A model generated the notes under the pieces. That model was not told the origin of the DNA, searched no databases, and saw only the letters and a list, made by a program, of their open reading frames with translations. Shown here piece by piece: positions 1 through 37,921 of a stretch of 57,082 nt of DNA. The translations under genes and the position numbers were made by a program. Origin of the DNA: an uncultured Candidatus Saccharibacteria bacterium (GTDB taxonomy: Bacteria > Patescibacteriota > Minisyncoccia > UBA6257 > GWB1-50-10); assembly GCA_964366055.1 (NCBI GenBank), contig CAYISE010000001.1:1-57082 (forward strand), written 5' to 3'. Each line of letters begins with the position of its first letter. Position 1 is the first letter of the stretch.

Positions 1-271
1 GTATCGCTTCGATCCCCTGAAGCATCTTTCCGGTGGTCGCTCCGTGAGCCCCGGAACCCACGCGCAGATTGTATTTCGGCTGCGGCACCGACAAATTCTT
101 GAAGAAAACTTTGTCCATCAGATAATCGTAATGCTGGCCGGTGTGCAAAATGAAAAATTTTACCTTCCGGCGGTCCGCTTCCCGGATAACCGGCGCCATT
201 TTGATGACCTCCGGCCGAGTGCCTATGACAAAGCAAAAATACGGCCGGCGGGATTTATCTTTTCTTTTCAT
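1..271 (-). CDS. wecB: UDP-N-acetylglucosamine 2-epimerase (non-hydrolysing), N-terminal about 90 aa; gene runs off the window start
   Basis: Not in the ORF track because it is truncated. My manual translation of the minus strand from the ATG at 271-269 gives MKRKDKSRRPYFCFVIGTRPEVIKMAPVIREADRRKVKFFILHTGQHYDYLMDKVFFKNLSVPQPKYNLRVGSGAHGATTGKMLQGIEAI. GTRPE.IKMAPV, HTGQHYD and VGSG.HG are hallmark WecB/MnaA motifs. Confidence 0.75.
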   Translation of the reverse strand, partial: MKRKDKSRRPYFCFVIGTRPEVIKMAPVIREADRRKVKFFILHTGQHYDYLMDKVFFKNLSVPQPKYNLRVGSGAHGATTGKMLQGIEAI

Positions 272-1040
272 AAATTTTCGCATCCACCAAAAACCGATAC
301 CAGAATCCCTGCAGAAAATGAAAAATTAATCCTTCCTTTCCGTCCAAAAATCCCAGCCGCAGGAAATAGCGGTATAAAAAATAGAAACACGGCCGGAAAA
401 ACAGCGGCAGGCGGTAATAGAAAGAACGTTTGGGGTTGCTCGCGGCGCCGCCCTTTAAAATATCGTTCACTTCCCGGGAGGAATAATTATTGTGGCGCTC
501 TATCCACTCCCTCAATCCCTTCCGGTTGTCATCGGCAAAATCGTTCTCCAATCGGCCGGCTCCTCCTTCAGTCAGGACAATATGCTCGTCCATTTCTTTG
601 TCTTCGGAACGACCCTTTCCTCTCCGCCATAATCTCAAGAACCAAGCGGGATAATAGCCGCCGTGCTTCATCCACCGGCCCATAAAATAAACCCGGCGTT
701 TCATATAGAATCCCGAGACCTCGGCCGACACCCCCGGCAAAACCTCGGCGATTTCATTCTTCAATTCCGGGGTCAGGTATTCATCGGCATCCAATTTCAA
801 AATCCACTCGCTTTCTACCTCCAAATTATCCAGCGCCCAGTTAAATTGCTCGGCTTGATTTTTAAAGGGGTGGATGAAAAATTCAGCGCCGTAACGTTTC
901 GCGATGGCCGGGGTCTTATCGGTGGAATAAGAATCAACGACGAAAATCTCGCCGGCCCAACCGGAAACGCTCCGAAGACACCGATCAACATTTAACTCCT
1001 CGTTATAGGTCAGTATGATTACCGCGATAGATGGTCTCAT
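255..1040 (-). CDS. family 2 glycosyltransferase
   Basis: 261 aa. N-terminal VIILTYNEELNV...VVDSYSTDKT and a DxD-like LDADE, typical of the GT-A/GT2 fold. Confidence 0.8.
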   Translation of the reverse strand: MRPSIAVIILTYNEELNVDRCLRSVSGWAGEIFVVDSYSTDKTPAIAKRYGAEFFIHPFKNQAEQFNWALDNLEVESEWILKLDADEYLTPELKNEIAEVLPGVSAEVSGFYMKRRVYFMGRWMKHGGYYPAWFLRLWRRGKGRSEDKEMDEHIVLTEGGAGRLENDFADDNRKGLREWIERHNNYSSREVNDILKGGAASNPKRSFYYRLPLFFRPCFYFLYRYFLRLGFLDGKEGLIFHFLQGFWYRFLVDAKIYEKKR

Positions 1041-2193
1041 ATTCTTTCAAAAATTTGCCGGCTATTTCGGAAAGAGAAAATTCTCTTTTAATCAGTTCCC
1101 GGCCGCCGGCCTTTAATCGCTCGGCTAAAACGGGGTCCCCGATAATTTTCAAAATTGACCGCGCCAATTCTCCCTCGTCTTTATTTACCACTATACCCGC
1201 CTCATACTTCTCAATCAAAGGGCTAATCCCCACCCCTTTGGTAACCACGACCGCCGTTTGACTCATTCCTTCCGCAACCGCCATACCGAAATTTTCAGAA
1301 TAAGACGGCAAAACAAAAATCTGCGAGTCCCGAAAAGCGGCGGTTTTATCTTCACCCAAAAGCATTCCCGTAAAAATAACATTGCCCTTCAAATTATTTT
1401 CATCTATCCAATCCTCAATCTGCTTTCTGTAACCTTCGTCATCGCCGCCCGCTAAGACCAAAAACGCTCTCGGCTCTTCGGTCAGCACCCGTTTGAACGC
1501 TGGAATCAACGTATCCAAACCCTTCTTCCAATTCAGACGGCCCAAAAAGAGGACGATTTTTTTATCAGCCGGAATATTAAACTTTTTCCTGAAAAATCCC
1601 GCCGGGGTTTTCTCCTTAAATTCATCCGCGTCAAAACCGTTGGGGATGATAAAAGAATTTTTGAGCGGCAAGCCGGCTGCCAGATATTCTTCCTTTTCGG
1701 CCTCAACCGTAAAATGAATCGCCGCCGCCTTGGCCAGATTTCTTTTTTCAATCAAACCGAGATAAACTCTTTTTTTTAAACGGCCTTTCATGGCCAGAGG
1801 TTCTTTCATCAAACTGCCCCTCGGTGAAATAATATAGGGCTTATCGCGCTTTCTGGCATAATAAGCGCCCAATGTTGATGCCGCCAGAAAAACCGACGTG
1901 ATATGAACGATGTCAAATTCTTGAATGGTTTTGGCTAAAGTCAGGTGCAGATCCAAAGAATAAGACCACCCTCTCGGGAAAAAACTTTGGAAGTAAAAAA
2001 TCTTGACGTCGTCCAATCTCACAATTTCACCCAACGGCACCGCCAATTCCCCCGCTCCGTCTATATTGGTCGTGTAAACCGTCACATCGGCGCCTTTTTT
2101 AACCAGCCATTTGTTCAATTGGTGAACGCTCAAAATAGGACCGCCTTGTCTATAGGCGGGCAGATAAGTCGGAACAATGTGGAGAATTTTCAT
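1003..2193 (-). CDS. family 4 (GT-B) glycosyltransferase
   Basis: 396 aa. MKILHIVPTY... N-terminus and C-terminal EX7E-type motif PSYSENFGMAVAEGM. Confidence 0.8.
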   Translation of the reverse strand: MKILHIVPTYLPAYRQGGPILSVHQLNKWLVKKGADVTVYTTNIDGAGELAVPLGEIVRLDDVKIFYFQSFFPRGWSYSLDLHLTLAKTIQEFDIVHITSVFLAASTLGAYYARKRDKPYIISPRGSLMKEPLAMKGRLKKRVYLGLIEKRNLAKAAAIHFTVEAEKEEYLAAGLPLKNSFIIPNGFDADEFKEKTPAGFFRKKFNIPADKKIVLFLGRLNWKKGLDTLIPAFKRVLTEEPRAFLVLAGGDDEGYRKQIEDWIDENNLKGNVIFTGMLLGEDKTAAFRDSQIFVLPSYSENFGMAVAEGMSQTAVVVTKGVGISPLIEKYEAGIVVNKDEGELARSILKIIGDPVLAERLKAGGRELIKREFSLSEIAGKFLKEYETIYRGNHTDL

Positions 2194-3114
2194 TTATTTT
2201 CGGCCCAGAGCGTGCTTCAGGTCGCCCCGAAAACCTTCCCACTCGCCGACGCATCTCGCTAATTCCTGGATGAAATAAACATAAAGGAACGGGAAAAAAT
2301 CTTTCAATCCGTTTTTTGAGCGGCGGCTTATTTTTACGACGCGCAAGGTAGCGGGGACTATTAAAATAAACCTCAATACGAAAATTACATTCTTCGCAAG
2401 CAACTTTAGGAAAAGAAGCGGCAAGGGATACTTATCCATAAAATATTGCTGGAGGGGGCCGAACCGCCCGCGCGCCTTTCTCGCGTGCCAGAATTCTTTG
2501 AAATTATCCGGCTGGGGATGCTGAACTACAATTGACGGGTCGTAAACTTTTTTATATCCGCCTTCGGTCAGCTTCTTCCCCAAAAGCCAGTCGCGGCAAA
2601 ACTTCGCGGGGTAGCTCGGACCGAACATTCCCAATTTGAGCGCCAAGTCCCTCCGGCACGAAAACGCTTCGGCATAATACATATCACTCCGGCCCTCGTG
2701 TTCCGAAATATGAAGCGCGCCCACGAAACGGGAAAAAACGTTTTTTGTTCGTGGATAATCGGAATCCACCAAAACCCAATCGGCGCCGGCTTCGTATTTC
2801 TCGGCAAGCCGATCCAGAAAATCTTTCGGAGGCCGCACGTCGGCATCGGCCTGGACGATGATATCCCCCGTCGCCTGTTCAATGCCAAGATTGACCGCCT
2901 CGCAACATCCTTTTCTCGGGCCATTTATCAAACGCACGCCCTTTGAGACATATTCTTTGATTATCTCCGGCGTCCGGTCGGATGAATCGTCAATAATCAA
3001 AATTTCCTTATTCGGGTAGGATAAGCCGATGAAACTCTCCAATGTTTCGCGGATATCTTTCTCTTCGTTGCAGGAAGGGGTGATAATGCTGAATTTAAGG
3101 CCGTTTTTGGCCAT
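2194..3114 (-). CDS. family 2 glycosyltransferase
   Basis: 306 aa. FSIITPSCNEEKDI...IIDDSSDRT, then QADADV (DxD), with a hydrophobic C-terminal segment. Confidence 0.75.
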   Translation of the reverse strand: MAKNGLKFSIITPSCNEEKDIRETLESFIGLSYPNKEILIIDDSSDRTPEIIKEYVSKGVRLINGPRKGCCEAVNLGIEQATGDIIVQADADVRPPKDFLDRLAEKYEAGADWVLVDSDYPRTKNVFSRFVGALHISEHEGRSDMYYAEAFSCRRDLALKLGMFGPSYPAKFCRDWLLGKKLTEGGYKKVYDPSIVVQHPQPDNFKEFWHARKARGRFGPLQQYFMDKYPLPLLFLKLLAKNVIFVLRFILIVPATLRVVKISRRSKNGLKDFFPFLYVYFIQELARCVGEWEGFRGDLKHALGRK

Positions 3115-3949
3115 GGGGAACCGCTAAAATATTATGCGACGTTTCTATGGTAGGCGCTTCGGTTATCGACGTCAAATTATTTTCGCCTATCAGATGAAGA
3201 GCGTAATCATTTTGACCGAAGAATATTTTCGCGTCTTCCCATTTGAATCCGGCCCGACTCCAATTGTCCCGGTTATATTCAAAAATGACGGAGGGGTTGA
3301 ATTTTCTTATACTTTCGGCCGCGCCTTTAATGATGGGAAAATCGCTTCCTCGGGTGTCTATCTTGATGAGGTCCAAACGATTAAGTCCTTCGTCCGCCGC
3401 CACTTTGTCCACGGTTGATACTTGAACCTCAAAAGATTTTTCCAGATTGTTCAGTTCATACAAACTTGAAGTTCCCTTGTCCGGCATTTGGTCGTTGTAA
3501 GAAAAAAGGTTCGTCTTCCCCTCTTTATCGGACAAGGCCGAGCTGAAGACCTTGATGTTGTTGAGGCCGTTGAGAAGGATGTTATCCATCAGTTTCTTTC
3601 GGATGTCCGGATGGGGTTCAAAAGCCAGAACCCTTCCGGTCTCGCCGGCCAATCGGCCCATCACGAGGGCGTGGGTTCCGATGTAGGCCCCCGCGTCAAT
3701 CGCGACGGAGCCCTCTTTAAGGACGCTCTTGAAAAAATCAACGACTTTTTTTTCATACTGTCCGCGAAAAAAAATATCCCACTCCACGTACGATGAGGTA
3801 TCAACGTTAATCAGCAGGCCGTTACCGTATTTTATCGTCTCCTTAATCCGTAATTTTTTTGAGTTAAAAAACAATCTCAATATTCTTTGAGTCCCCCGCG
3901 GATGGAATCTTCGCGTAATAGCCGCCAGAACTCTAGCAAACGCGCTCAT
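3095..3949 (-). CDS. FkbM-family SAM-dependent methyltransferase
   Basis: 284 aa. DAGAYIGTHAL SAM-binding glycine loop and FEPHP, resembling FkbM-type sugar O-methyltransferases. Confidence 0.65.
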   Translation of the reverse strand: MSAFARVLAAITRRFHPRGTQRILRLFFNSKKLRIKETIKYGNGLLINVDTSSYVEWDIFFRGQYEKKVVDFFKSVLKEGSVAIDAGAYIGTHALVMGRLAGETGRVLAFEPHPDIRKKLMDNILLNGLNNIKVFSSALSDKEGKTNLFSYNDQMPDKGTSSLYELNNLEKSFEVQVSTVDKVAADEGLNRLDLIKIDTRGSDFPIIKGAAESIRKFNPSVIFEYNRDNWSRAGFKWEDAKIFFGQNDYALHLIGENNLTSITEAPTIETSHNILAVPHGQKRP

Positions 3950-5054
3950 TTGCTTCTTTCAGAGAGGAAACGACGTAGCTCAATTCTTCCTCGGATATAA
4001 CTGGCCCGCTCGGAAGATAAAAGCCGTTCCGAGCAACCTCATTCGCCACCGGACAATCGCTCTCTTTCGTCCATCCTTGCTTTATGAAAATCTCCTGCAT
4101 ATTGGCCGGAACGAAGGATTCCCGCGTCTCAATGCCTTTTTGTTTCAACGCATCTGTAATTTCTTTTCGCCGGCCTTCCAATCTGCCCCGAAGTACAACG
4201 TGAAACATCCAGTAGACATTCTTCGCGTAGGATTTTTCAACCGGCAGTTGGATATCGACCAAGTATTTCAGATTTTTCAGATAAAAATCGGCTATCGCCC
4301 TCTTTTTTTCTACGGCTATCTCAATTTTATTGAGTTGAGCGCAACCCAAGGCCGCCTGCAGATTGGTCAAGCGGTAATTAAAACCGACATCGCTGTGCAT
4401 GAACCTGTTTTCAATTCCGTAAGCCAATGATTTCAGAGACCTCGCGCGGTCCGCGTATTCCTTATTGTTCGTTGCGAGCATCCCACCCTCGCCAGTCGTG
4501 ATTATCTTATTGGCGTAAAAACTGAAAACGCCGATGTCGCCGAGCGCGCCGACCTTCCTGCCTTTGTATTCCGCGCCGTGGGCCTCGGCCGCGTCTTCAA
4601 TGACAAAAAGATTATATTTCTTGGCGACAGCGAGCACCGGGTCCATATCCACCGGATGGCCGTAAATATGCACCGCCATAATGGCTTTGGTTCTGGAGGT
4701 GATTTTTGATTCCAAAAGCGAAGGATTCAGATTCCAAGTGTCGGTTTCAATGTCTATCGGAACGGGTTTCGCTCCCGTGTAAAGCACGGCGAAAAATGTG
4801 GCCATGTTGGTGAAGGTGGAAACCAAAACCTCATCGCCGGGGCCTATTTTCAAAGTCGCGAGCGCCAGATGGAGCGCCGCCGTTCCACTAGAAGCGGCCA
4901 CTCCGTAAGAACATCCGGAATATCCGGCAAAACCACTCTCAAATTCGCCGATGAATTTTCCGAAGTTCCCGGAAATTTCTCCGGAATCAAGCGCCTCCGC
5001 CACTAATTTTTTCTCCTCCTCGCCGATGAACGGCCGGGAAACGGGAATATACAT
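3933..5054 (-). CDS. DegT/DnrJ/EryC1/StrS-family PLP-dependent sugar aminotransferase
   Basis: 373 aa. FE..FA.Y.G..Y..A..SGTAALHLAL and the PLP-lysine region FSFYANKIITTGEGGM. Confidence 0.85.
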   Translation of the reverse strand: MYIPVSRPFIGEEEKKLVAEALDSGEISGNFGKFIGEFESGFAGYSGCSYGVAASSGTAALHLALATLKIGPGDEVLVSTFTNMATFFAVLYTGAKPVPIDIETDTWNLNPSLLESKITSRTKAIMAVHIYGHPVDMDPVLAVAKKYNLFVIEDAAEAHGAEYKGRKVGALGDIGVFSFYANKIITTGEGGMLATNNKEYADRARSLKSLAYGIENRFMHSDVGFNYRLTNLQAALGCAQLNKIEIAVEKKRAIADFYLKNLKYLVDIQLPVEKSYAKNVYWMFHVVLRGRLEGRRKEITDALKQKGIETRESFVPANMQEIFIKQGWTKESDCPVANEVARNGFYLPSGPVISEEELSYVVSSLKEANERVC

Positions 5055-5107: not shown

Positions 5108-6889
5108 TCACTTGAAGATCAGGTAGTTTCCCAAAACCAAAATATCAATCCCGCTTCTCATAAAAGTGGAGTAGGCGTCTTCGGGAGTATTGACAATCGG
5201 TTCGCCTTTGAGATTGAACGAGGTGTTTAAAATTAAAGGCACGCCGGTTTTTTCGTAAAACGCCTTTATCAACTTATAGTAGCGGGGGGATTCTTCCGGA
5301 AACACGAGCTGCGGCCGGGCCGTCCCGTCCACGTGCGTGATGGCCGGAACGATTTTTTGCTTTTCCTTCCTGACATTCACGACGTAGAGCATGAACCGGG
5401 CCGGCAGACGGGTTTCCGCTTCGGACAATTCAAAAAAATCATTCGCCTTATCTCCTAAAACCGATGGAGCGAAGGGCCGATAGGGTTCGCGGAATTTTAT
5501 CTTGGTGTTCACGATATCCTTCATATCCGCCCGCCGGGGGTCGGCGATAATTGAACGGCTCCCGAGCGCGCGCGGACCCCATTCAAACCGGCCGTTAAAC
5601 CAACCGACAACTTTCCCTTCGGCAACGCTTTTCACAACTTCATCAATCAGCCCATTTTCATCGTTAAAATAACGATGACTGATTTTTTCTCCCTCTAAAA
5701 AACTTTTTATCTCGGCATCGGAGTACTCGGCGCCGAAATAGGCGTGCTTCATCACATACTTTCTGGGAGCGCTGAAGATTTGATGCTCAACGAGCAGAGC
5801 CGAACCCAGAGCGCCGCCGGCATCGCCGGCCGCCGGCTGGACGAACATGTTTTTGAACGGAGATTGCTTCAACATCTTCCAATTCGCCACCGAATTCAGC
5901 CCAACGCCTCCGGCCAAGCAAAGATTTTCGCAACCAGTTAATCTGTGCGCCTCGTTCGCGAGTCCTGTGACTGCTTCCTCATGAACCGCCTGGAGGGAAG
6001 CGGCAACGTCGGCATAATACTCTTGTTCCAACGCAATCCGTTCGTATTCTTCTCTCTCCGGCTTCGGACCGAAATATGACGGCCAGCCGGTCTCCCGGGT
6101 AAAAAATTTTGATTTCGGGTCGCGCGGCTTGCCGAAAAGTTCGGTGAATTTCTTCGAAAAACTCTTATTAAGCGAGCAATGGAAACTGAAATAACTTAAA
6201 TCGAGCTCATACGAGCCATCGTCAAAAAATTTGAGCATTTTTCTCACTTTATCCGCGTATTTCGGCTTGCCGTAAGGCGCCATGCCCATCACTTTGTATT
6301 CGCCTTCGTTAACCTCAAAGCCGAGAAAAGCGGTGAAAGCGGAATAAAGAAGCCCGAGCGAGTGGGGGAAATGAACCTCCTTGAGAATTTTTATTTTTGT
6401 CCCTTCTCCGATACCAATCGTCGTAACGGCCCACTCGCCAACCCCATCTATCGTAAGGACAGCGGCTTTTTCGTAAGGCGAGCAGAAGAAAGCCGATGCG
6501 CCGTGGGCCAAATGATGCTCGGCAAAAAGAATTTTTTCGGGAGCGATATCAAGTTCTTTGGCAATAAGGGCGCGGACCCACAACTTGCTCAAAAAAAGAT
6601 GTTTGATGGATTCCTTGAAAACAAGAGGCGCGAACGGAAAAGTCGCCAAATTATTCTTGAATATTCTTTCAAATTTCAAGAAGGGTTTTTCATAGAAAAT
6701 CACGTAATCAAGAGCGCCAGCATCCAAATTTCCTTCTTTTAGAACGAATCTAATCGCTTCTTTGGGAAAGGCGGAGTCATTTTTCTTCCTTGAGAAACGC
6801 TCTTCCTCCGCTAGGGCGACCGGCCGGCCGTCAATCAAAAGGGCGGCGGCGGAATCGTGATAAAAAAAAGACAATCCGAGGACTTTCAT
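5108..6889 (-). CDS. NodU/CmcH-family carbamoyltransferase
   Basis: 593 aa. N-terminal LGLSFFYHDSAAALL and C-terminal NTSFNLKGEPIV, both characteristic of O-carbamoyltransferases. Confidence 0.85.
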   Translation of the reverse strand: MKVLGLSFFYHDSAAALLIDGRPVALAEEERFSRKKNDSAFPKEAIRFVLKEGNLDAGALDYVIFYEKPFLKFERIFKNNLATFPFAPLVFKESIKHLFLSKLWVRALIAKELDIAPEKILFAEHHLAHGASAFFCSPYEKAAVLTIDGVGEWAVTTIGIGEGTKIKILKEVHFPHSLGLLYSAFTAFLGFEVNEGEYKVMGMAPYGKPKYADKVRKMLKFFDDGSYELDLSYFSFHCSLNKSFSKKFTELFGKPRDPKSKFFTRETGWPSYFGPKPEREEYERIALEQEYYADVAASLQAVHEEAVTGLANEAHRLTGCENLCLAGGVGLNSVANWKMLKQSPFKNMFVQPAAGDAGGALGSALLVEHQIFSAPRKYVMKHAYFGAEYSDAEIKSFLEGEKISHRYFNDENGLIDEVVKSVAEGKVVGWFNGRFEWGPRALGSRSIIADPRRADMKDIVNTKIKFREPYRPFAPSVLGDKANDFFELSEAETRLPARFMLYVVNVRKEKQKIVPAITHVDGTARPQLVFPEESPRYYKLIKAFYEKTGVPLILNTSFNLKGEPIVNTPEDAYSTFMRSGIDILVLGNYLIFK

Positions 6890-7649: not shown

Positions 7650-8606
7650 ATGGCTGAAGAAATTAGGGGAAAAAAGGTCTGTGTTATCGGGGGCGCCGGT
7701 TTTTTGGGCAGTCATCTCGTGGATTATCTCGTGGAAGAAAAGAACTGCGAAGTGCTGGTGCTGGATAATCTAATCTCCGGGCTCAAAAAACATATCAATA
7801 AAAAGGCGGAATTCGCCTGGTATGACATCCGCGACGACGAGCACGAACTGATAGGCATCCTGAAGAGCCACGGAATAGGGTACGTCTTCAACTACGCGGC
7901 CGAGCCGTACATCCCGGAGGGATTTGAGCGACCGAAACATTTTTTCATAATCAACGCTTTGGCTGTTTTGAATGTCCTGAATGCCTGCCAGAAAGCCAAC
8001 GTGAAGAAAATCCTGCAGGTGAGTTCCGCCGAGATCTACGGGGATATGAAAGGCAAGATCAAGGAAAGCGATATGGTGGTGGCCCACTCCACCTACGGCG
8101 TCTCCAAAATGGCGGCGGACGGGCTGGTGCAGGTGCGCTGGCGGGAAGGACAAGTGCCAGCCATCGCCATGCGGCAGTTCAATTGCGTGGGTGAACGAGA
8201 AACTCACGAATACGTCATTCCGGAGATTGTGAGCCAACTGGCCCAAGGCCCCATAGTCCATTTGGGTAACAACAGCTTCCGTGATTTCCAATATGCCGGC
8301 GACGCCGTCCGGATGGCAACGGAACTTTTGGAGAAGGGCGAACCCGGCGAGGTTTACAATATGGGATCGGAAGAAGGTATCCAGATATACGATTTGGCGA
8401 ACCTGATCGGAAAACTGATGGGCTACGAAAAGATTGAGATCGTGACCGAACAAAAAAGAGTGAGGCCGTGGGAAATCTGGCACCTTCAATCGGATAATAC
8501 CAAGTTATATTCGATAATCAGCTACCGCCCGAAAACAAAACTTGAGGAAGCTTTGAAGAAAACCATCAAATACTTCCGGGATAACGCCGGAAAATGGGAT
8601 TTCTAG
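7650..8606 (+). CDS. NAD-dependent epimerase/dehydratase (extended SDR)
   Basis: 318 aa. GGAGFLGSHL Rossmann motif and catalytic YGVSK (YxxxK). Confidence 0.8.
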   Translation: MAEEIRGKKVCVIGGAGFLGSHLVDYLVEEKNCEVLVLDNLISGLKKHINKKAEFAWYDIRDDEHELIGILKSHGIGYVFNYAAEPYIPEGFERPKHFFIINALAVLNVLNACQKANVKKILQVSSAEIYGDMKGKIKESDMVVAHSTYGVSKMAADGLVQVRWREGQVPAIAMRQFNCVGERETHEYVIPEIVSQLAQGPIVHLGNNSFRDFQYAGDAVRMATELLEKGEPGEVYNMGSEEGIQIYDLANLIGKLMGYEKIEIVTEQKRVRPWEIWHLQSDNTKLYSIISYRPKTKLEEALKKTIKYFRDNAGKWDF

Positions 8607-8613: not shown

Positions 8614-9795
8614 TTAAGAGAGCCACTTCCTCCCATCAAAGAAATCCACCCAACGAGCGGTGAACTTGTCAACCGAATATTCTTTGACCGTTTCGGCGGC
8701 CTGAACGCTCATCTGTCCGACTAAATCCCTGTCACGGGCGCAATGGAGCAATTTCCGGGCGATTGCTTCGCTGTCGCAAGGCGGCACGACGAAGCCGTTT
8801 ATCCCTTCTTTGATGATATCCGGCCCGCCGCTATGCGTCGTCGCGATGACCGGCAAGCCGTGGCTCATCGCCTCGAACATCACTTGGCCGAAACCGTCGT
8901 CCAGCGTGGGAAATACGAAGACCGACGATTTCCGGTAATAGTCCCCCAAAAGATGGTGACGCACCGGACCGGCATATTCAAAAATCCCATCGTATTTCCC
9001 CAAGAATGTTTTTATCTCCGGGTCAATCGGGCCGACAATAGTGAGTTTAATATCTTCGTTACTTTCTTTTTTTATTTTTTCCATCGCCTCCAAAAGATAG
9101 AGCGCGCCCTTCATTATTGAAAGGGAACCGACGTATAAAACTTCCAGCGGGCCGTTTTTATTCTTCTCCGATATTCCGGCGCTGGAAATTACAAGGTCCT
9201 CCGCCGCGCTCAAGGGGAAATGGATGATTTTATCTTCGGGAACGCCGCGCTCCGCATAGGTCCGGGCGGCAAACGACGAGGGGGTGAAGAGCGCATCGCA
9301 CAGTTCGTACTCCTTCAATTCCCTTCTTATCTTTTTGTCGCTGTTCGCGGTTCGGGGAACCAAACCAAGCTTCCGATATTCTCTTTCCCTTTCCTCTTTC
9401 TGGAACTCTATATGCGAGGAGCCCCGATACATCACGGTCTTCGCCCCTATTCGCTTGGCCGCCTTCATTGTCTTCAAGGCGCACATGGAACGGGTGATGA
9501 CGATATCACTGCCCTTTATGTGCTTTGAGGCCCAAGCGTCAAAAAAGACCTGCTCATAATAAGAAAAATCTTTGATGAATCTCCGGGCCGCGATGTCAAA
9601 AATCCGGGCGAGAAAAAAAAGTTTGACTTTTTCTTTGGGAATTTTTTCGTTGTCCTTCCGCCGCCATTCCAAAAAAGGGATTTTCGGACTGTAAAAATCC
9701 GTGAGAACCCGGTAAAGCAGGCCGCGCTTTTCAAATCCTTCGGCCCACCGGAAAAGGTCAAATTTGCCGTAAGTGGAGATGGTTATTTTTTTCAT
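8614..9795 (-). CDS. family 4 (GT-B) glycosyltransferase
   Basis: 393 aa. C-terminal FPTLDDGFGQVMFEAMSHGLPVIAT (EX7E-like) motif. Confidence 0.75.
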   Translation of the reverse strand: MKKITISTYGKFDLFRWAEGFEKRGLLYRVLTDFYSPKIPFLEWRRKDNEKIPKEKVKLFFLARIFDIAARRFIKDFSYYEQVFFDAWASKHIKGSDIVITRSMCALKTMKAAKRIGAKTVMYRGSSHIEFQKEEREREYRKLGLVPRTANSDKKIRRELKEYELCDALFTPSSFAARTYAERGVPEDKIIHFPLSAAEDLVISSAGISEKNKNGPLEVLYVGSLSIMKGALYLLEAMEKIKKESNEDIKLTIVGPIDPEIKTFLGKYDGIFEYAGPVRHHLLGDYYRKSSVFVFPTLDDGFGQVMFEAMSHGLPVIATTHSGGPDIIKEGINGFVVPPCDSEAIARKLLHCARDRDLVGQMSVQAAETVKEYSVDKFTARWVDFFDGRKWLS

Positions 9796-10863
9796 TTATT
9801 TATTCGGAAGTCCCAGGAGCTTCGCAATCGCTTCCGCCACCATTTCATGCCCCTTTTCGTTAATGTGCCCGTCCTTCGGCAAGTAGAGATTTTTTCCGCC
9901 AATGACGGTTTCGGTCAGGTCAACGAAGGGAATATCGTTGTTTTTGAGGATAGAGCCCATTCTCCCGCCCATCTGCCTTTCAAACCAGTTGTACTTTATG
10001 TTTCTGGAAGGAATAAGAACCGCCGCGAGGGTTTTGCCCAGCAGTAACTCCTTCATTTTTTTGATAATTCCTTCAAACAAGGCGAATTTTTGGTCGTAAT
10101 CGGCCAGATTTTTCACCAAACCAAGGCGGCTTAGGGATTCGTAGAAATACTCTTTAGCCAAAATTTTCGCCAAAGACAGCGTCTTCAAATCAAAAATCCA
10201 TTTGGTCAATTCGTAAACCTTTTCATTTTTGACGCGATAATCGGTTTTGGATTCCCGGGTTTCGAAAACGCTTGCCTGCGGGACATTTTCCCATTTGAGC
10301 AGATTGTTGTCCAAAGAAAACTTGGGTTTGGGACCGGACTGGGAACTCACGTTGATCTCATCAATGTCGTTAAGAAAATAAAAAACCAAAACCACGATAT
10401 CGGGGTTGTATTTCATCCCTTCCGTCTTGAGCGCGAGATAATACTGGCCCGCGTCGTATCCCGGGACACCGAGATTCAAAACCTCCCCGCCGGTATTTCT
10501 TTCCAGCAGTTTTTCAAAGGTGTTTTCAAGAGCAACGCCCTGGCCGAAGGTGTGGGAATCGCCCAAGATGACGATTCTTTTTTTCGCGGGGTCTTTTACA
10601 TATGAATGTTCCTCATCATCTCTAAGTCCCTTGCCGTTCGTCTTGTATTGAATATCGTATTCAACGGTTTTCTGCCGGCAGGATTGATTCGGCTGGAGCC
10701 GCCAGCCGATGACCGGGTCATGCGTATAAAGATTGTCAGCGCAATCATAAAAATTCGCCATCTTCTCTTTAGAGGTTTCGTAACTGTCCCAAGCCCTTAA
10801 ACCAAGTTCCGAAATCGCCAAACCTATCGCCAAACCCAGCAATATTAGAAACGCTTTCCGCAT
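9796..10863 (-). CDS. secreted or membrane-anchored SGNH/GDSL hydrolase (possible glycan O-acyl esterase or transferase)
   Basis: 355 aa. N-terminal hydrophobic anchor, block I ILGDSHTFG and block V DGHINEKGH. Confidence 0.7.
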   Translation of the reverse strand: MRKAFLILLGLAIGLAISELGLRAWDSYETSKEKMANFYDCADNLYTHDPVIGWRLQPNQSCRQKTVEYDIQYKTNGKGLRDDEEHSYVKDPAKKRIVILGDSHTFGQGVALENTFEKLLERNTGGEVLNLGVPGYDAGQYYLALKTEGMKYNPDIVVLVFYFLNDIDEINVSSQSGPKPKFSLDNNLLKWENVPQASVFETRESKTDYRVKNEKVYELTKWIFDLKTLSLAKILAKEYFYESLSRLGLVKNLADYDQKFALFEGIIKKMKELLLGKTLAAVLIPSRNIKYNWFERQMGGRMGSILKNNDIPFVDLTETVIGGKNLYLPKDGHINEKGHEMVAEAIAKLLGLPNK

Positions 10864-13316: not shown

Positions 13317-14319
13317 TGGGATGCCTCAAATACCAATCGTAAGTTCTTTTCAATCCCTCTTCAAGAGATACATTCGGTTTCCAGCCGGTCAAGCTTTGCA
13401 ATTTCGTGATGTCGGCGAGCCGTCGCTTTACGCTTCCCGGCGGGGACGATTTTATATCCAATTTTTTCGGCCGCCAGCCCGCGATTTTAAAAAGTTTTTC
13501 CACCAGTCCTTTCATATTGATTTCCTCAAGGTCGCCGATGTGCACGGTTTCAATCGGCTGGTTGTCGGTTTTCGGAGAATCCATAAGTGCCTGCATCGCC
13601 CGAATCGCGTCATCAATATAACAAAAGGTTCTCGTATCATCACTGCCGTAGATTGGAAAGGGGTCAACTTTATTCGCTATTCTCAAAGAGAACTCCGGTA
13701 TCACGTGGTCATAGCCGGCCCGCGGACCGTAAAAATTATGAGGACGAATTACCAAGGCCCGGAAATTTAACATCTTGGCATAATGAATGACGAATAACTC
13801 GCCTACCAGCTTGGTTGAAGCGTAAGACCAGCGCGGATTATAGGGGTCTTCTATCACAAGCGGAACCTTTTCGGGCGTCGGGATGGGCAAAATACCGAAA
13901 GCATTCAATCCCCCGGCGTAGGCCTCATTTGAAGAAGTGAAACAGAATTTGCCTTCGCGATTATGCTTGGCAAACCAATCAAGCATATGAACCAGAGTGA
14001 GAGTGTTGATTTTCAAAACCTCGTGGGGAATTTCGTAGAAAAGTTTGGTGCCGTTAACGGCCGCAAGGTGATAGACACGAGCATATCCGCTACCCAGTTT
14101 TTCATACGAAGCAAGGTTGGTGAGATCCAAAGTCAAGAACTTTATCCTCGGGTTTTTTATCAATTCTCCGAAATCCTCATCCATCTTTCCTCTTCGGAGA
14201 TTATCCACCAAGACAATTTCTGCTTCGGTACTCTGAAGCAAATGATTCGCCAAATGATAACCGATGAATCCCGCCCCGCCAGTTATGAGAATTTTCATGC
14301 TTCGCGCAACAGATTCCAA
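13303..14319 (-). CDS. NAD-dependent epimerase/dehydratase (extended SDR)
   Basis: 338 aa. GGAGFIGYHL and YASTK (YxxxK). Confidence 0.8.
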   Translation of the reverse strand: MESVARSMKILITGGAGFIGYHLANHLLQSTEAEIVLVDNLRRGKMDEDFGELIKNPRIKFLTLDLTNLASYEKLGSGYARVYHLAAVNGTKLFYEIPHEVLKINTLTLVHMLDWFAKHNREGKFCFTSSNEAYAGGLNAFGILPIPTPEKVPLVIEDPYNPRWSYASTKLVGELFVIHYAKMLNFRALVIRPHNFYGPRAGYDHVIPEFSLRIANKVDPFPIYGSDDTRTFCYIDDAIRAMQALMDSPKTDNQPIETVHIGDLEEINMKGLVEKLFKIAGWRPKKLDIKSSPPGSVKRRLADITKLQSLTGWKPNVSLEEGLKRTYDWYLRHPNEKI

Positions 14320-15503: not shown

Positions 15504-15516
15504 TGAGATTAATATA

Positions 15517-25305: not shown

Positions 25306-26043
25306 ATGATTAACGAAAAAAAAATTGTGATTGTGATACCCGCTTACAACGCGGCAAAAAAAATAACGACTGTGTTTGAACGCATCCCTAAAGAAATTTG
25401 GGATAAAAATTCTGCCGTCATTATCGTGAACGACGGCAGTACGGACGAAACAGGCGAAAAGATTAAAGAAATTCAAAAGCGCTGGAATACTCGAATTATC
25501 CCGATTATCAAACCGAAAAATGAGGGATATGCCCGCGCTCAAAAAACCGGTTTTGCCATGGCTCTGAACATGAATGCCGATATTGTTCCGCTCTTGCATT
25601 CGGACGGCCAGTACGCGCCAGAGATACTACCGGAGCTTCTTAAACCCCTTGAAAACGGCGATGTCGACATCGTCCAGGGATCGCGCATGATTGACAAACG
25701 CGCCGCGCTTCGCGGAGGAATGCCTTTCTACAAGTTCATCGCGAATATTTCTTTAAGCGCTCTTGAGAATCTGGTTTACGGCCTTCATTTCGCCGAATAT
25801 CACTCGGGCTACATGCTTTACTCCCGAAAAGCGCTTGAAACCGTTCCCTTTGAAAAACTCTCGGATACGTTTCACTTTGACGGCGAGATGCTTTTGGTGG
25901 GGGCAAAGAAAGGTTTGCGGGTAAAGGAAATTCCAATTTCCACGACATATGCCGATGAAGTGAGCCATCTTAAGCCGATTCAATATGGATTTCACGTTCT
26001 TGGTATCATGATAAAATACTTGCTTGGAAAATATAATTTTTAA
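25306..26043 (+). CDS. family 2 glycosyltransferase, polyprenyl-phosphate sugar synthase-like (DPM1/Ppm1/ArnC-like)
   Basis: MINEKKIVIVIPAYNAAKKI...VNDGSTDET...HSDGQY. The track start at 25240 is a GTG that overlaps the divergent gene. The ATG at 25306 fits the canonical GT2 N-terminus. Confidence 0.7.
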   Translation: MINEKKIVIVIPAYNAAKKITTVFERIPKEIWDKNSAVIIVNDGSTDETGEKIKEIQKRWNTRIIPIIKPKNEGYARAQKTGFAMALNMNADIVPLLHSDGQYAPEILPELLKPLENGDVDIVQGSRMIDKRAALRGGMPFYKFIANISLSALENLVYGLHFAEYHSGYMLYSRKALETVPFEKLSDTFHFDGEMLLVGAKKGLRVKEIPISTTYADEVSHLKPIQYGFHVLGIMIKYLLGKYNF

Positions 26044-26058: not shown

Positions 26059-27072
26059 ATGAGTTCAAGAGTATTCATAACAGGCGTGGCCGGTTTTCTT
26101 GGGAGCCATCTGGCAGACAGATTGCTTCGGGACGGGCATGAAATTATAGGCATTGATAATTTTCTCGGCGGACACGAAGACAATATTCCGAAGGGTGTCC
26201 AATTTCATAAAATAGACGCGCGAGACCTTGAAAAATTAAAACCCCTCATGAAAGGGGTGGAAGTGGTATATCACTGCGCCGCCGCGCCGCACGAAGGGCT
26301 GTCGGTATTTTCTCCGGATCTCGTGACTCAACATACCTATAATTCCTCAATTGCAACATTAACGGCTTCAATCGTAAACAACGTGAAGCGGTTTGTATTT
26401 TGTTCAAGCATGGCACGCTACGGCAAACAGGAACGGCTTCCTTTCACGGAAGATATGCCTCCCAGACCTCAAGACCCCTATGGAATCGCCAAGTACGCTT
26501 CGGAACTCACAATTGAGAGCTTATGCGACGCGCACGGCATGGAATACGCAATCGCGATCCCCCACAATATCATCGGTCCGAGACAAAAATATGACGACCC
26601 GTTCCGAAACGTCGCCTCCATCATGGCCAATTTGATGCTTCAGGGAAGACAACCGATTATTTATGGTAACGGCGAACAGAAACGAGGGTTCTCGTACGTG
26701 CAAGATGTAACCGAACCATTGGTAAAAATGGGGTTCGACAAAGTAGCCGTGGGCGAGGCAATTAATATCGGGCCGGATGAGGAATTCACCACGATTAATG
26801 AATTGGCGCGCCGACTGGCTTCCATTATCGGATTCAAAGAATTACAACCGATTTACCACAACCCCCGGCCGCTCGAGGTAAAATTTGCTACATGTTCCGC
26901 GGATAAAGCGCGAAAACTTTTGGGATACAAGACAACATATAGCTTGGATGATGCGCTCACAGAGACAGTTGAATGGATTCGCAGGCGCGGACCAAAGCCC
27001 TTTATATATCATCTTCCCCTGGAGATTATCAATAAGCATACCCCAAGCACCTGGAAAGACCGCCTTTTTTGA
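26059..27072 (+). CDS. NAD-dependent NDP-sugar dehydratase/epimerase (extended SDR)
   Basis: 337 aa. TGVAGFLGSHL and YGIAK (YxxxK). Confidence 0.8.
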   Translation: MSSRVFITGVAGFLGSHLADRLLRDGHEIIGIDNFLGGHEDNIPKGVQFHKIDARDLEKLKPLMKGVEVVYHCAAAPHEGLSVFSPDLVTQHTYNSSIATLTASIVNNVKRFVFCSSMARYGKQERLPFTEDMPPRPQDPYGIAKYASELTIESLCDAHGMEYAIAIPHNIIGPRQKYDDPFRNVASIMANLMLQGRQPIIYGNGEQKRGFSYVQDVTEPLVKMGFDKVAVGEAINIGPDEEFTTINELARRLASIIGFKELQPIYHNPRPLEVKFATCSADKARKLLGYKTTYSLDDALTETVEWIRRRGPKPFIYHLPLEIINKHTPSTWKDRLF

Positions 27073-33790: not shown

Positions 33791-33827
33791 AAGACAGATG
33801 GATTATAACAGCAAAATGGGGAATTGG

Positions 33828-34631: not shown

Positions 34632-34634
34632 GTT

Positions 34635-35585: not shown

Positions 35586-35639
35586 AATGCTAAATTTTAC
35601 GGCTGTCTTGAATACTTTGTCAAACAATCTACCCGGACG

Positions 35640-35909: not shown

Positions 35910-36491
35910 TTACTTTAATTTATCCACAATATTTCTTACATTCTGGTCGTTGGGCCAGTATCCCAAAATGATATTCCCTATTTCCTTCTCTTTACCGAAA
36001 TCCCCTTTCGCCTGATATAAATCCAGCAAAGAATAGAGCACCGGCGGGAGCTTGGGGCCGATGGCCAAAGCCGCTCGGTAGGCCTCCTCGGTCTTCGCAA
36101 AATCCTCAATATGGCCGTATTTCTGCCACAAGAGATTATAAAGATTGCCGCGGGTTATGAGATGGCGCACGTCATTTTTGAAAAGATAGGGCTCAATGAA
36201 CGACACGATTTCGCGGGAAACGGCCTCGGGATTGTTCTGCGAAACGATGCCCCTCACGATATCGCTGCTTAAAAACTTAACGACCTCCTCCTGGCCGACC
36301 GGCGAGAAAATGTCCAGCGCTTTTCCGAAAACATTTTCAAACTCCGGCACATCTTTTACCGAGGACAACATATTAATCGCCCGAATGTACGAACGCGCCT
36401 TCACAATCGGAAGGTAGGAACCGGAAAAGACGGAGAGCAACGCCAGAATCAGCCCCGCGGAGATAAGAACGTTTTTAAAAACGTTTTTCAT
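35910..36491 (-). CDS. membrane-anchored TPR-like repeat protein, probable detached C-terminal partner of the O-antigen-ligase-like protein
   Basis: 193 aa. N-terminal TM helix, then helical repeat-like sequence (..AYRAALAIGPKLPPVLYSLLDLYQAKGDFGKEKE..). Its start overlaps the upstream stop (ATGA at 36488-36491). Confidence 0.5.
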   Translation of the reverse strand: MKNVFKNVLISAGLILALLSVFSGSYLPIVKARSYIRAINMLSSVKDVPEFENVFGKALDIFSPVGQEEVVKFLSSDIVRGIVSQNNPEAVSREIVSFIEPYLFKNDVRHLITRGNLYNLLWQKYGHIEDFAKTEEAYRAALAIGPKLPPVLYSLLDLYQAKGDFGKEKEIGNIILGYWPNDQNVRNIVDKLK

Positions 36492-37819
36492 TTGGCGTTT
36501 TTTTCCTGAAAAACGTAGGCGGCGAAAGCAAGTAAAATAAAAACATTGATGTAGATTACGAGCACGTCAAAAAGCGCGAAGCCCTGAACAAGATAAGCCA
36601 GCAAAACGCCGAGGAGAAGCGCGTTCGTAAAAGACGAGTTGCTTCCCGAAACTGAAATTTTCATTGAACGAAGCAATTGCCAGAAAAACGTCGCGAAGAT
36701 GCCGAGGAACGAAATAATACCCAAAAGGCCGGTCTCCACCAGATAGTCAAAGTAAATGCTGTGCGCCCGGTCAAACCACGCGCCGAAACCCTCGCTGGGC
36801 CGGAAATAGGCCGTGTTAAAGTGCCGGTCAAAAACCTGAATGTAATTTTCGGGGCCCCAGCCAAAAATCGGCCGTTCTTTAAACCCATCCCAAGCAATCT
36901 TCCACATTATGGCGCGGTCCTCAAATGTCCGCGCGGTAAAAGAAATGTCAAAGATGCGCGAACCGGGAATGGATTTTACGAAAGACGTGTCCTTAAAATA
37001 AATGAATGAACCGACTCCAATCACAAGAATGGCAACAGCGACCAGGAGCCACTTGCGCAGGGAAGCGTGAGCGTACATGAAATAGAATAAGCCGGCCGCG
37101 ACCGCCGCCATCAAACCGAGAAACGCGCCGCGGGTCGCCGCCGCGAAAAACATGGCCAAGAATCCGATGCCGGCGATGAAAAGCGCGATGGCGCCAGCGG
37201 ACGCCAGCCGCCGCCGATAAGCGGCAGAGAGAAGATACAACACATAGAATAACAAGAAGATGGAATACGCGGCGACATAAGCCGGATTCCCGATAGAACC
37301 GGAAAAACGGAAACCGGCATCGCCGAAGAGGGGGCCTATCGTTTTAGAAACGCCCAAAGCGGCCAGCAAACCGTAGAGACCCGAGAGAACGCCGCCAATA
37401 ATCGCCCAACCGAAAAGGCGCCGCCAATCCCGTTCTTCTTCAAATAGGGTTACGAGAAGAACGAAAAAAAACCAAAGATGGAGTATTTGAAAACCGCCCT
37501 CGCCGCGCTCAAAATTGGACCAAAAAGAATTCGCCGGATTCACCCCGAAAAGACCGGCCAGAAGAAACGCGGCGACAAACGCAGTAACGGCGATGACGAG
37601 CGGCCTCTTCAAAACGGCTAAAAGATTGCGGCCGATTACGCCCGCCTTATCCCGGAATAAAAGTCCGAGCAGAAAAAAGATGAGCGCGATATCCACCGTC
37701 GTCCGGAACCAGACGTACTTCCCGACAATGAATGGAAAAAGAGTGGAAATTGTCACGAGCACCACCGCGAGCGGCGCGATAAAAAGGAAGAATTTGGAAA
37801 TTTTAAAATAATCGAACAT
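36488..37819 (-). CDS. O-antigen ligase/Wzy_C-family polytopic membrane protein
   Basis: ATRGAFLGLMAAV...IFGWGPENY...AHSIYFDYLVETGLLGI is the Wzy_C signature. The track start at 37861 is a TTG. The ATG at 37819 is preceded by AGGA. Confidence 0.75.
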   Translation of the reverse strand: MFDYFKISKFFLFIAPLAVVLVTISTLFPFIVGKYVWFRTTVDIALIFFLLGLLFRDKAGVIGRNLLAVLKRPLVIAVTAFVAAFLLAGLFGVNPANSFWSNFERGEGGFQILHLWFFFVLLVTLFEEERDWRRLFGWAIIGGVLSGLYGLLAALGVSKTIGPLFGDAGFRFSGSIGNPAYVAAYSIFLLFYVLYLLSAAYRRRLASAGAIALFIAGIGFLAMFFAAATRGAFLGLMAAVAAGLFYFMYAHASLRKWLLVAVAILVIGVGSFIYFKDTSFVKSIPGSRIFDISFTARTFEDRAIMWKIAWDGFKERPIFGWGPENYIQVFDRHFNTAYFRPSEGFGAWFDRAHSIYFDYLVETGLLGIISFLGIFATFFWQLLRSMKISVSGSNSSFTNALLLGVLLAYLVQGFALFDVLVIYINVFILLAFAAYVFQEKNAK

Positions 37820-37921
37820 GTTCCTAAAGTATAGCAATAAAATAAAACCTCGCCAAACCAAAAGCTTTTTCCCGGGGGCTTTTGGACCGATTATACGCTA
37901 TCGGGAAACTTCATACAATCT

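Follow-up and report, generated by a model that had tools for sequence, protein, structure and literature searches.

Among the closest described counterparts of the locus examined here are the slg clusters of Geobacillus stearothermophilus NRS 2004/3a and Paenibacillus alvei (with the O-oligosaccharyltransferases WsaB/WsfB), in which a Wzy_C ligase with a fused or separate tetratricopeptide-repeat (TPR) partner is linked to the structural gene of a surface layer (S-layer) and accompanied by nucleotide-sugar genes, glycosyltransferases and methyltransferases. In Geobacillus stearothermophilus the TPR protein WsaA and the Wzy_C O-oligosaccharyltransferase (O-OTase) WsaB are separate polypeptides; in PglL and WsfB the TPR module is fused (PMC2943079). 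A comparable arrangement is present in contig CAYISE010000001.1 (assembly GCA_964366055.1), the whole 57,082 bp of which constitute the window of this study. The region described here represents most of a surface-glycan island that belongs to a Parcubacteria-type Patescibacterium, is longer than 38 kb and is cut by the contig end. We favor, with a probability of roughly 0.6, the interpretation that it is an S-layer-type island for the O-glycosylation of surface proteins, in which the phosphoglycosyltransferase (PGT) and flippase genes would lie just off the contig and a Wzy_C ligase would act on a giant protein encoded nearby.

The resemblance to the slg clusters takes in the ligase and its TPR partner, the nucleotide-sugar genes, glycosyltransferases and methyltransferases, a WbaP-type initiating enzyme (found in relatives of the window locus) and the linkage to a surface-protein gene, although an S-layer role of the giant protein is here unproven. 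The slg clusters, which measure roughly 16-24 kb, are smaller than this island of over 38 kb; theirs is a Wzm/Wzt ABC exporter, whereas relatives of the window locus encode a MOP flippase; the window island carries two GT-C enzymes; and SLH anchoring is replaced by a PG_binding_1 domain in the giant protein. The locus works like known systems of S-layer or O-linked protein glycosylation and like O-antigen-type islands, and what is new is the host lineage, the size, the GT-C pair and the giant protein with its PG_binding_1 anchor. The cell envelope of the Patescibacteria, or candidate phyla radiation (CPR), is still called unclear (PMC5220378), and it is in general statements that CPR genomes have been credited with numerous glycosyltransferases and, perhaps, an S-layer that is glycosylated (PMC5220378; PMC12911398). 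In the literature on the Parcubacteria O-antigen ligase and on S-layers or glycosylation in Patescibacteria, we found neither this conserved locus nor the GT-C family described.

Gene calls were made from a listing of open reading frames (ORFs) combined with Pfam and NCBIfam scans of all the long ORFs of the window. Positions 1-37861 are filled by a close succession of 39 genes, of which most lie on the minus strand and nearly all are concerned with sugar-nucleotide or glycan metabolism, so that the contiguous cluster of about 38 glycan genes described in the first-pass annotation, which had been made from the letters alone, is borne out. By Pfam there are eight Leloir glycosyltransferases (four GT2, three GT4 and one GT9) where about nine had been estimated, and seven extended short-chain dehydrogenases/reductases (SDRs), a family correctly named there with a tally of eight. 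All five of its methyltransferases were recovered (FkbM, CmcI, two Methyltransf_11 and one Methyltransf_13/14 C-methyltransferase), as were the cupin-type genes (RmlC, a WbuC cupin and one further cupin) and single copies of a DegT aminotransferase, a carbamoyltransferase, a nucleoside diphosphate (NDP)-sugar dehydrogenase, a nucleotidyltransferase, an SGNH protein and the Wzy_C protein. Its list had passed over two NUDIX genes, an E1 alpha/beta pair dependent on thiamine diphosphate (ThDP), the DUF5989 and SxtJ-like mini-ORFs, two paralogs of about 500 aa with 10 transmembrane segments, and the 5' fragment of a UDP-GlcNAc 2-epimerase gene. Its guess that the host was a reduced-genome bacterium was right, because the nearest homologues of the proteins encoded in the island are labelled Patescibacteria, Candidatus Jorgensenbacteria, Wolfebacteria, Brennerbacteria and Paceibacterota; for the GT-C and ligase proteins the closest matches are in metagenome-assembled genomes (MAGs) of Jorgensenbacteria, Parcubacteria and other Patescibacteria. 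The G+C content of the island is 47.3%, compared with 50.6% for the rest of the contig.

The ligase, the giant surface protein and their conserved frame

The Wzy_C protein is predicted to be a conserved ligase of the WaaL/PglL type. Its AlphaFold2 model (predicted local distance difference test score, pLDDT, 84; predicted TM-score, pTM, 0.88) has a single significant fold match in the PDB, the ligase WaaL (7tpg; E 2.9e-7, TM-score 0.62/0.67), and it shares with WaaL and PglL/PilO not only the fold but also the Wzy_C domain and invariant Arg and His residues of the external loop. R230, R288 and H353 are invariant among its homologues, and the segment H353-S-x9-G-LL-G fits the motif H[NSQ]x9Gxx[GTY]. 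Of 853 homologues the best 120 are 50-77% identical, and those that are named belong to Patescibacteria lineages. This conservation persists across relatives with an entirely different glycan gene content and is far above that of repeat-unit polymerases. In being so conserved across a class-level lineage the protein differs from both WaaL and PglL; it differs further from WaaL in carrying, or pairing with, a transmembrane and TPR module, and in having a host without a known lipid A-core acceptor.

The module in question is represented in the window by a 193-aa ORF that has a 4-nt overlap with the stop codon of the ligase gene and is 49% identical (E 1e-51) to residues 463-636 of a fused homologue of 647 aa (P0107; Pfam TPR_19). 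Some of the other ligase homologues, of about 645 aa, likewise include a TPR_19 domain, and the 193-aa ORF is the split-off C-terminal module of the ligase. In one relative (L028, 7725-11938) two tandem ligase genes, of 759 aa and 645 aa, directly follow the giant-protein gene, and the first of them gives faint TPR matches.

It is very improbable that the Wzy_C protein serves instead as the repeat-unit polymerase of a Wzx/Wzy-dependent capsule or exopolysaccharide locus. Some polymerases do share the Wzy_C domain, and relatives of the locus possess a MOP flippase and a PGT; yet polymerases co-vary with the repeat unit, whereas this protein retains its high identity beside wholly different glycan genes, its fold matches WaaL only, and neither the window nor some 25 loci of Patescibacteria showed a Wzz/PCP or export component. 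The only candidate for a Wzy polymerase in the window is a protein with a WaaL fold that is conserved independently of the glycan gene content.

At the ligase end, the island abuts genes for secreted surface proteins, as the first-pass annotation had stated; its distance of 0.9 kb is also correct (37861 to 38753), yet an IS200-like Y1 gene sits inside this gap. The largest of the products is a giant S-layer-like protein composed of a signal peptide, a coiled coil, a PG_binding_1 domain, a (TG)n linker and a Ser/Thr-rich region of about 950 aa, with 26% Ser+Thr and 4 Cys in all. The G+C content of its gene is 56%, against 47% in the glycan island and about 50% in the other flanking genes. In the window, two further secreted-protein genes lie between it and the Y1 gene. 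One encodes a Thr/Gly/Ser-rich repeat protein of 339 aa for which neither Pfam nor NCBIfam returned a match. The other looks like a single gene for a secreted PG-binding protein that a frameshift has broken into two overlapping ORFs, with a signal-peptide-like N-terminus and a poly-Gly run in 39114-39749, and (TPAVPA)n repeats and PG_binding_1 in 38753-39307; since the break lies in a G-rich GGN-repeat tract (about 39240-39290, with a G8 run at about 39240-39250), it could reflect an assembly error or phase variation.

The neighborhood was compared in four relatives whose ligases are 56-72% identical to that of the window (L026-L029; a Jorgensenbacteria MAG, a Minisyncoccia-labelled contig and two metagenome contigs). 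All four have the same order: (SIMPL-HtrA-)ClpB, a polytopic membrane protein of about 240-266 aa, a giant protein, the ligase (+TPR) and the glycan genes. With the window included, the ligase is therefore linked to the gene of a giant secreted Ser/Thr-rich protein in five of five loci. The giant proteins of the relatives measure 1,025-1,152 aa and are 81% (L027), 54% (L026), 30% (L028) and 29% (L029) identical to that of the window; the group shares the signal peptide, the coiled coil, the (TG)n linker, 23-26% Ser+Thr and 0-4 Cys, and PG_binding_1 is present in three of the four relatives, L029 being the exception. Because the gene order recurs in all four, the link between the glycan island and the surface-protein genes is not accidental.

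The membrane protein between ClpB and the giant protein has 8 transmembrane segments in the window and no Pfam or NCBIfam match. Its gene and the 3' end of clpB have 59 nt in common, an overlap that is identical in L026 and L028, and a gene of similar size occupies the position in 4/4 relatives; the similarity of the products is 53-54% in L027 and L029, weak in L028 (39% over 71 aa) and undetected in L026. At the other side of the frame, the junction around the ligase gene is a hot spot for insertion: besides the Y1 gene of the window, there is a toxin-antitoxin pair (DUF6922/AbiEii) together with a 23S_rRNA_IVP gene in L026 (9104-9987 and 11529-11894) and a 23S_rRNA_IVP gene in L028 (3434-3754). 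In L027, which has no Y1 gene there, a gap of 98 bp follows the end of the giant-protein gene, and the ligase gene then begins on that same strand.

These comparisons also bear on the main rival, which we regard as rather unlikely, namely that the glycan is not placed on protein at all: the ligase would transfer it to a membrane glycolipid (a lipoglycan) or to the cell wall, and the giant protein would be a mere conserved neighbor. The sole solved structure that the ligase matches is a lipid-directed enzyme, a GT9 "heptosyltransferase-family" protein is encoded in the ligase-proximal module, and the adjacency of genes is by itself no proof of a relation between enzyme and substrate. Against this, Parcubacteria are reported to be without genes for lipid A and lipopolysaccharide (PMC5220378), the adjacency of ligase and giant protein has been kept while the latter diverged to 29-81% identity (down to the 98-bp gap in L027), and among O-OTases that act on protein, such as PglL, WsfB and WsaA/B, a TPR partner is typical (PMC2943079).

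Probable priming and export genes beyond the truncated end

The island is incomplete, being cut at base 1, because a truncated WecB-family gene leaves the contig at its left end. The fragment matches UDP-GlcNAc 2-epimerase 4neq in a phmmer search of the PDB (E 6e-25) and exceeds the Pfam cut-off for Epimerase_2 (43.5 bits). Pfam and NCBIfam scans of the ORFs found no Wzx, Wzm/Wzt, Wzz or PGT within the 57-kb window, and to that extent they agree with the first-pass annotation, which had recognized no Wzx, Wzm/Wzt, chain-length regulator or initiating PGT. The "non-canonical export and assembly route" that it went on to propose is not supported, since the island is cut and relatives carry a flippase and a PGT beyond that same end.

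The evidence from relatives comes from 80 metagenome loci fetched through the terminal glycosyltransferase gene GT2a, of which the 21 with at least 9 kb past GT2a were counted; relatives stem from Hainich metagenomes. In 17 of these 21, a protein of about 490 aa with 10-13 transmembrane segments is encoded 3-9 kb past GT2a; along its full length, its profile aligns with a flippase of teichoic-acid subunits (E 4.5e-12) and with MurJ (E 9e-7), and it is a flippase of the MOP/Wzx type (Wzx/MurJ/TacF-like). Usually adjacent to it, and present in 15 of the 21, is a WbaP/PglC-type PGT, a protein of about 440 aa with 5-6 transmembrane segments that is similar to PglC (E 7e-34) and WbaP (E 2e-25). Several loci have a WecB-family gene between GT2a and this pair, as predicted by the fragment at the left end of the window. 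In relatives, homologues of GT2a stand at that end of the island which is nearest to the flippase and PGT, and neither PGT nor flippase genes occur in any of the loci centred on GT-C or ligase genes, which fits a location at the far end of the island. An ABC2_membrane/Wzt-type pair was seen neither in the window nor in related loci. On the simplest reading of these gene neighborhoods, the pathway would be a canonical one, initiated by a PGT and flipped by a Wzx-type protein, with its genes just off this contig.

The 57-kb contig by itself, with no gene for a PGT, a Wzx or an ABC exporter and with two GT-C enzymes plus a GT2 resembling synthases of polyprenyl-phosphate (Pren-P) sugars, might also suggest that the lineage truly does without these components and follows a new route, such as assembly by GT-C enzymes alone from Pren-P-monosaccharides. 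We give this only the slightest credence. Not only is the island cut at the contig end, with the canonical PGT and MOP flippase at exactly that end in relatives, but eight cytoplasmic Leloir glycosyltransferases imply a lipid-linked oligosaccharide, and hence a need for priming and flipping. A new export route, like the polymerase role, is thus unlikely, and it is the canonical pathway that we retain below.

ABC genes at 55476-56964 were considered as a glycan exporter and rejected, being of the ABC-3 metal-uptake type by Pfam. A membrane protein of the DedA/VTT family is encoded at 53905-54555; members of this family have been implicated in the recycling of undecaprenyl phosphate, and the window member may serve the lipid-carrier cycle.

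Two GT-C paralogs and the proposed glycan decoration outside the membrane

The two membrane paralogs, GTC1 and GTC2, are 28% identical over their full length (E 3e-44; GTC2 profile E 2.5e-145) and have no Pfam match at E <= 10, no NCBIfam match and no PDB match by profile. Their identity came from structure comparison alone, after these sequence searches had found nothing. The AlphaFold2 model of GTC1, built with 36 homologues (pLDDT 88.7, pTM 0.90), has GT-C enzymes for all its top nine Foldseek matches in the PDB (ALG12, EmbA/EmbB, PglB, AftD and Pmt1/2; probability >=0.99), the best being ALG12 (E 5.5e-5, TM-score 0.55), and from this model both paralogs are predicted to have a GT-C glycosyltransferase fold. 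The idea that they might be the missing Wzx or Wzy was rejected, as MurJ and other transporters reached a probability of <=0.16 and a TM-score of about 0.1. In the GTC1 alignment D71 and R155-P156-E157 are invariant, and D39 and H193 are kept in at least 90%; D39 and D71 fall in the first external loop of the model, between the first (9-30) and second (98-125) transmembrane segments, a position consistent with a catalytic role. When the profile was run against 1.84 billion cluster representatives, 724 members were retrieved with E <= 1e-3, among them 299 with E <= 1e-30; the family is thus modest in size, and it is undescribed. For GTC2 itself the search gave only nine close homologues.

Three-part systems that serve as precedents are mycobacterial PpgS (Rv3631) with the GT-C protein Rv3779 and a UDP-GlcNAc 4-epimerase, GtrABC, CsbB/YfhO, and PgfS/PgfM1/PgfE/PgfM2 of S. 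mutans. They share with the window the logic of combining an epimerase-type SDR, a short GT2 to charge polyprenyl phosphate with a sugar, and a polytopic GT-C protein to pass this sugar on outside the membrane. Divergent from GTC2 lies such a short GT2 (GT2d), in an operon with an SDR; NCBIfam ranks AglJ, PpgS, Dol-P-hexose transferase, PgfS and ArnC highest among its matches. The window differs from the precedents in that these matches all fall under the equivalog cut-offs, in that its GT-C proteins match no Pfam or NCBIfam family, and in that no small flippase of the GtrA/Rv3789 type was seen at the locus. The GTC2 orthologues of two other loci (L030 and L031; 70% and 53% identity) also adjoin a short PpgS-like GT2 and an SDR, making three loci of three, and this conserved neighborhood implies that GTC2 and its two partners would decorate the glycan outside the membrane.

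GTC1 has another companion, GT2c, which lies upstream of it, either directly or one methyltransferase gene apart, in the eight relatives that carry GT2c (L002, L003, L005, L006, L007, L009, L010 and L011). A role for GT2c as the Pren-P-sugar synthase of GTC1 is unsupported, its best matches being ordinary GT2 enzymes of lipid-linked oligosaccharides such as TuaG, PglI and EpsE. In a Bacteroidota branch of the family, which includes the cultivated Mucilaginibacter arboris (L012-L024; e.g., L017 6331-12011), the operon reads GH43-UbiA prenyltransferase-GTC(-GTC)-HAD phosphatase, and 13 loci have UbiA, 12 have HAD, next to the GT-C gene. The UbiA-GTC-HAD arrangement follows the logic of the decaprenyl-phospho-pentose pathway, and it suggests a polyprenyl-phospho-pentose glycosylation system in Mucilaginibacter arboris. 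These gene associations support a tie between the GT-C family and Pren-P-sugar chemistry. The same operon also occurs in some MAGs labelled Janthinobacterium.

When these elements are put together, the favored mechanism would run as follows. In the cytoplasm, nucleotide sugars would be made that probably include an amino sugar, likely carbamoylated as well, a uronic or ManNAcA-type sugar, a C- and O-methylated 6-deoxy sugar, and a sugar given a two-carbon branch by the E1 alpha/beta pair. A WbaP/PglC-type PGT, encoded a few kb past the left contig end, would prime polyprenyl phosphate, on which the eight Leloir glycosyltransferases would assemble a large heteroglycan; a MOP (Wzx-like) flippase, also encoded past that end, would then export the lipid-linked product. 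Outside the membrane, GTC1 and GTC2 may add branch sugars from Pren-P-monosaccharides, at least one such donor presumably being supplied by the adjacent PpgS/DPM1-like GT2 and SDR, and the anchored SGNH enzyme may edit acyl groups. Finally, the ligase and its TPR partner would transfer the completed glycan en bloc, Ser/Thr residues of the giant protein being its most probable acceptor. In this scheme the gene families, the folds, the synteny, the truncation and the exchange of cassettes are observed, and the sugar identities, the donor lipids, the acceptor and the presence of the PGT/flippase pair in this genome are deduced.

Several points weigh against this interpretation. No experiment shows a glycosylated Patescibacterial protein or the formation of an S-layer by the giant protein, and a WaaL fold cannot tell lipid-directed ligases from protein O-oligosaccharyltransferases. 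In the window the ligase and giant-protein genes are separated by the Y1 gene and the two extra secreted-protein genes, one of them split. The PGT/flippase pair is placed on the evidence of relatives whose GT2a is 50-67% identical, and has not been seen in this genome. Every assignment to a specific enzyme (PpgS-like, WecC-like, LegC-like) scores under the NCBIfam equivalog cut-offs, and the genes may serve the synthesis of several glycans instead of one.

Variable gene content and its meaning for the lineage

The interior of the island is modular. By tblastn synteny, one module recurs in the order SDR, nucleotidyltransferase, SDR, (WbuC), E1a, E1b, CmcI, GT2c, GTC1, dehydrogenase, SDR2 and, after an interruption, GT4c, SGNH, GT4b, SDR1. 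The ligase-proximal module (SDR7, methyltransferase, C-methyltransferase, RmlC, GT9) has the same family order in L027, whose DNA is about 73% identical across window positions 32024-35627. The relatives L002 and L003, with an identical GTC1 orthologue and flanks that are 93-97% identical, differ in one cassette: L002 has E1a/E1b/CmcI (5498-8103) where L003 has a methyltransferase, a transketolase split into N and C parts, and a LamG protein (4157-8105). This exchange of cassettes is a diversification of the O-antigen type. The O-antigen and capsule loci known from diderms and Gram-positives resemble the window locus in that they have conserved ends (the ligase side; the PGT/flippase side) and a hypervariable middle, exchange cassettes between near-identical strains and have a G+C content below that of their flanks. 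They differ from it in that no Wzy polymerase, Wzz or ABC system was recognized at the window locus and in that here a protein probably carries the product, a large oligosaccharide.

The features are collected in Table 1; the homologies of some tailoring enzymes add detail. The aminotransferase has LegC and PseC as its top NCBIfam matches, each under the cut-off, and the nucleotidyltransferase is nearest to GlmU, ManC and HddC types, again under cut-offs. For the NDP-sugar dehydrogenase the nearest named enzyme is UDP-ManNAc dehydrogenase, with WecC-like equivalogs under the cut-off. The E1 pair matches Pfam E1_dh and Transketolase_C and, under their cut-offs, the NCBIfam models for the alpha and beta E1 subunits of pyruvate dehydrogenase. 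By analogy with Plm8/Plm9 and with AviB1/B2 of avilamycin, which put a pyruvate-derived two-carbon branch on keto-sugars (PMC4802897), it is predicted to attach such a branch to a keto-sugar. The SGNH/AlgX-like protein, also matched by NCBIfam GDSL LA_2490 and LA_2486 (E 1e-12), is likely to be an extracytoplasmic O-acyl esterase or transferase of the glycan. In the 817-aa GT4 protein the C-terminal half of about 420 aa has no Pfam match, and in L002 and L003 each half has a gene of its own (401 aa and 439 aa).

Some smaller observations concern gene boundaries and neighbors. SDR7 was called as a 395-aa ORF with a TTG start and an Arg/Pro-rich N-terminal extension of about 79 aa, which is probably not translated, the true start lying near 35585. 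From there an intergenic gap of about 325 nt, in which Rfam has no match, extends to the TPR gene. The Rfam scan of the whole window returned two tRNAs only. Beside tRNA-Phe, at 54889-55386, is a stand-alone C39 peptidase-domain protein of 165 aa without ABC transporter domains.

Table 1. Genes and other features of the glycan island and its surface-protein flank (positions in the window)
Feature	Position	Strand	Basis
WecB-family UDP-GlcNAc 2-epimerase gene, 5' part, off contig end	1..283	-	Six-frame translation
GT2a, GT2 glycosyltransferase	255..1040	-	Pfam Glycos_transf_2, E 3e-15
GT4a, GT4 glycosyltransferase	1003..2193	-	Pfam Glycos_transf_1 + Glyco_transf_4
GT2b, GT2 with one C-terminal transmembrane segment	2194..3114	-	Glycos_transf_2 E 4e-30; hydropathy peak residues 229-253
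FkbM-family methyltransferase	3095..3949	-	Pfam Methyltransf_21, E 5e-21
DegT/DnrJ/EryC1 sugar aminotransferase	3933..5054	-	Pfam E 3e-113
Carbamoyltransferase, NodU/CmcH type	5108..6889	-	Pfam Carbam_trans_N + Carbam_trans_C
Small transmembrane ORF, weakly SxtJ-like	6895-7161	-	Pfam SxtJ E 0.0098, under cut-off
Small transmembrane ORF, DUF5989	7133-7333	-	Pfam E 6.5e-14
SDR1, extended SDR	7650..8606	+	Pfam Epimerase, GDP_Man_Dehyd; 94% identical in L002
GT4b, GT4 glycosyltransferase	8614..9795	-	Pfam
SGNH/AlgX-like protein, N-terminal transmembrane anchor (residues 4-22)	9796..10863	-	Weak Pfam Lipase_GDSL_2, ALGX
817-aa protein, N-terminal GT4	10863..13316	-	Pfam Glycos_transf_1, residues 211-369 only
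SDR2, extended SDR	13303..14319	-	Pfam; adjoins dehydrogenase in relatives too
NDP-sugar 6-dehydrogenase	14295..15548	-	NCBIfam TIGR03026, 269.6 bits, over cut-off
NUDIX hydrolase	15517..16104	-	Pfam
GTC1, 499 aa, 10 transmembrane segments, predicted GT-C fold	16119..17618	-	AlphaFold2 + Foldseek
GT2c, GT2 glycosyltransferase	17619..18725	-	Pfam
CmcI/rhamnosyl O-methyltransferase family	18726..19466	-	Pfam RMNT_CmcI, E 4e-91
ThDP-dependent E1 beta-like	19463-20416	-	Pfam
ThDP-dependent E1 alpha	20391-21299	-	Pfam
WbuC-family cupin	21363..21839	+	NCBIfam TIGR04366, 102 bits, over cut-off
SDR3, extended SDR	21796-22902	-	Pfam
SDR4, extended SDR	22899-23750	-	Pfam
GTC2, 506-aa paralog of GTC1	23747..25267	-	Sequence comparison
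GT2d, short GT2, Pren-P-sugar-synthase-like, divergent from GTC2	25306..26043	+	NCBIfam
SDR5, extended SDR, operon with GT2d	26059..27072	+	Pfam
Sugar-1-P nucleotidyltransferase	27083-27808	-	Pfam
Cupin	27833-28255	+	Pfam
SDR6	28248-29183	-	Pfam
NUDIX	29219-29902	+	Pfam
Methyltransf_11, ligase-proximal module	29876-30808	-	Pfam
GT9, ligase-proximal module	30809-31981	-	Pfam
RmlC, ligase-proximal module	31985-32548	-	Pfam; NCBIfam over cut-off
C-methyltransferase, ligase-proximal module	32552-33790	-	Pfam
Methyltransf_11, ligase-proximal module	33828-34631	-	Pfam
SDR7, ligase-proximal module	34635-35585	-	Pfam
193-aa transmembrane + TPR-like protein	35910..36491	-	Aligned to fused homologue
Predicted WaaL/PglL-type ligase (Wzy_C)	36488..37861, start probably 37819	-	Pfam Wzy_C E 1e-19
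IS200-like Y1 transposase-family gene	37946-38638	-	Pfam Y1_Tnp
Secreted PG_binding_1 protein, two ORFs	38753..39749	-	Pfam
Secreted 339-aa Thr/Gly/Ser-rich repeat protein	39784..40803	-	Signal peptide, internal repeats in translation
Giant S-layer-like protein	41025..44465	-	Pfam PG_binding_1
8-transmembrane protein between ClpB and giant-protein genes	44836..45612	-	No Pfam or NCBIfam match
ClpB, conserved flank marker	45554..48226	-	Pfam; synteny

Patescibacteria live in attachment to other cells and suffer heavy predation by phages that carry nucleotide-sugar genes of their own (PMC12911398). For such bacteria the present analysis offers a testable model of the surface, in which a conserved frame (giant protein, ligase and TPR on one side; PGT and flippase on the other) surrounds a hypervariable glycan island. 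With a typical genome size of about 1 Mb, several per cent of the coding capacity is spent on the island, and the locus model, if true, would explain this. The GT-C family, with its roughly 700 cluster representatives outside any Pfam or NCBIfam model, could be studied in the cultivated Mucilaginibacter arboris (HMF7410) and Hufsiella ginkgonis (HMF7056), of which the latter has a single GT-C homologue and no GH43-UbiA-GTC-GTC-HAD operon. More tentatively, we suggest that the Parcubacteria as a whole may share a module made of a giant S-layer glycoprotein anchored to peptidoglycan, a dedicated WaaL-like/TPR O-OTase and a strain-variable island of 40-50 kb with PGT and flippase as its far boundary, with members of an undescribed GT-C family, present also in cultivable Bacteroidota, decorating the glycan outside the cell; on this conjecture the island might be the main determinant of both host attachment and phage specificity.

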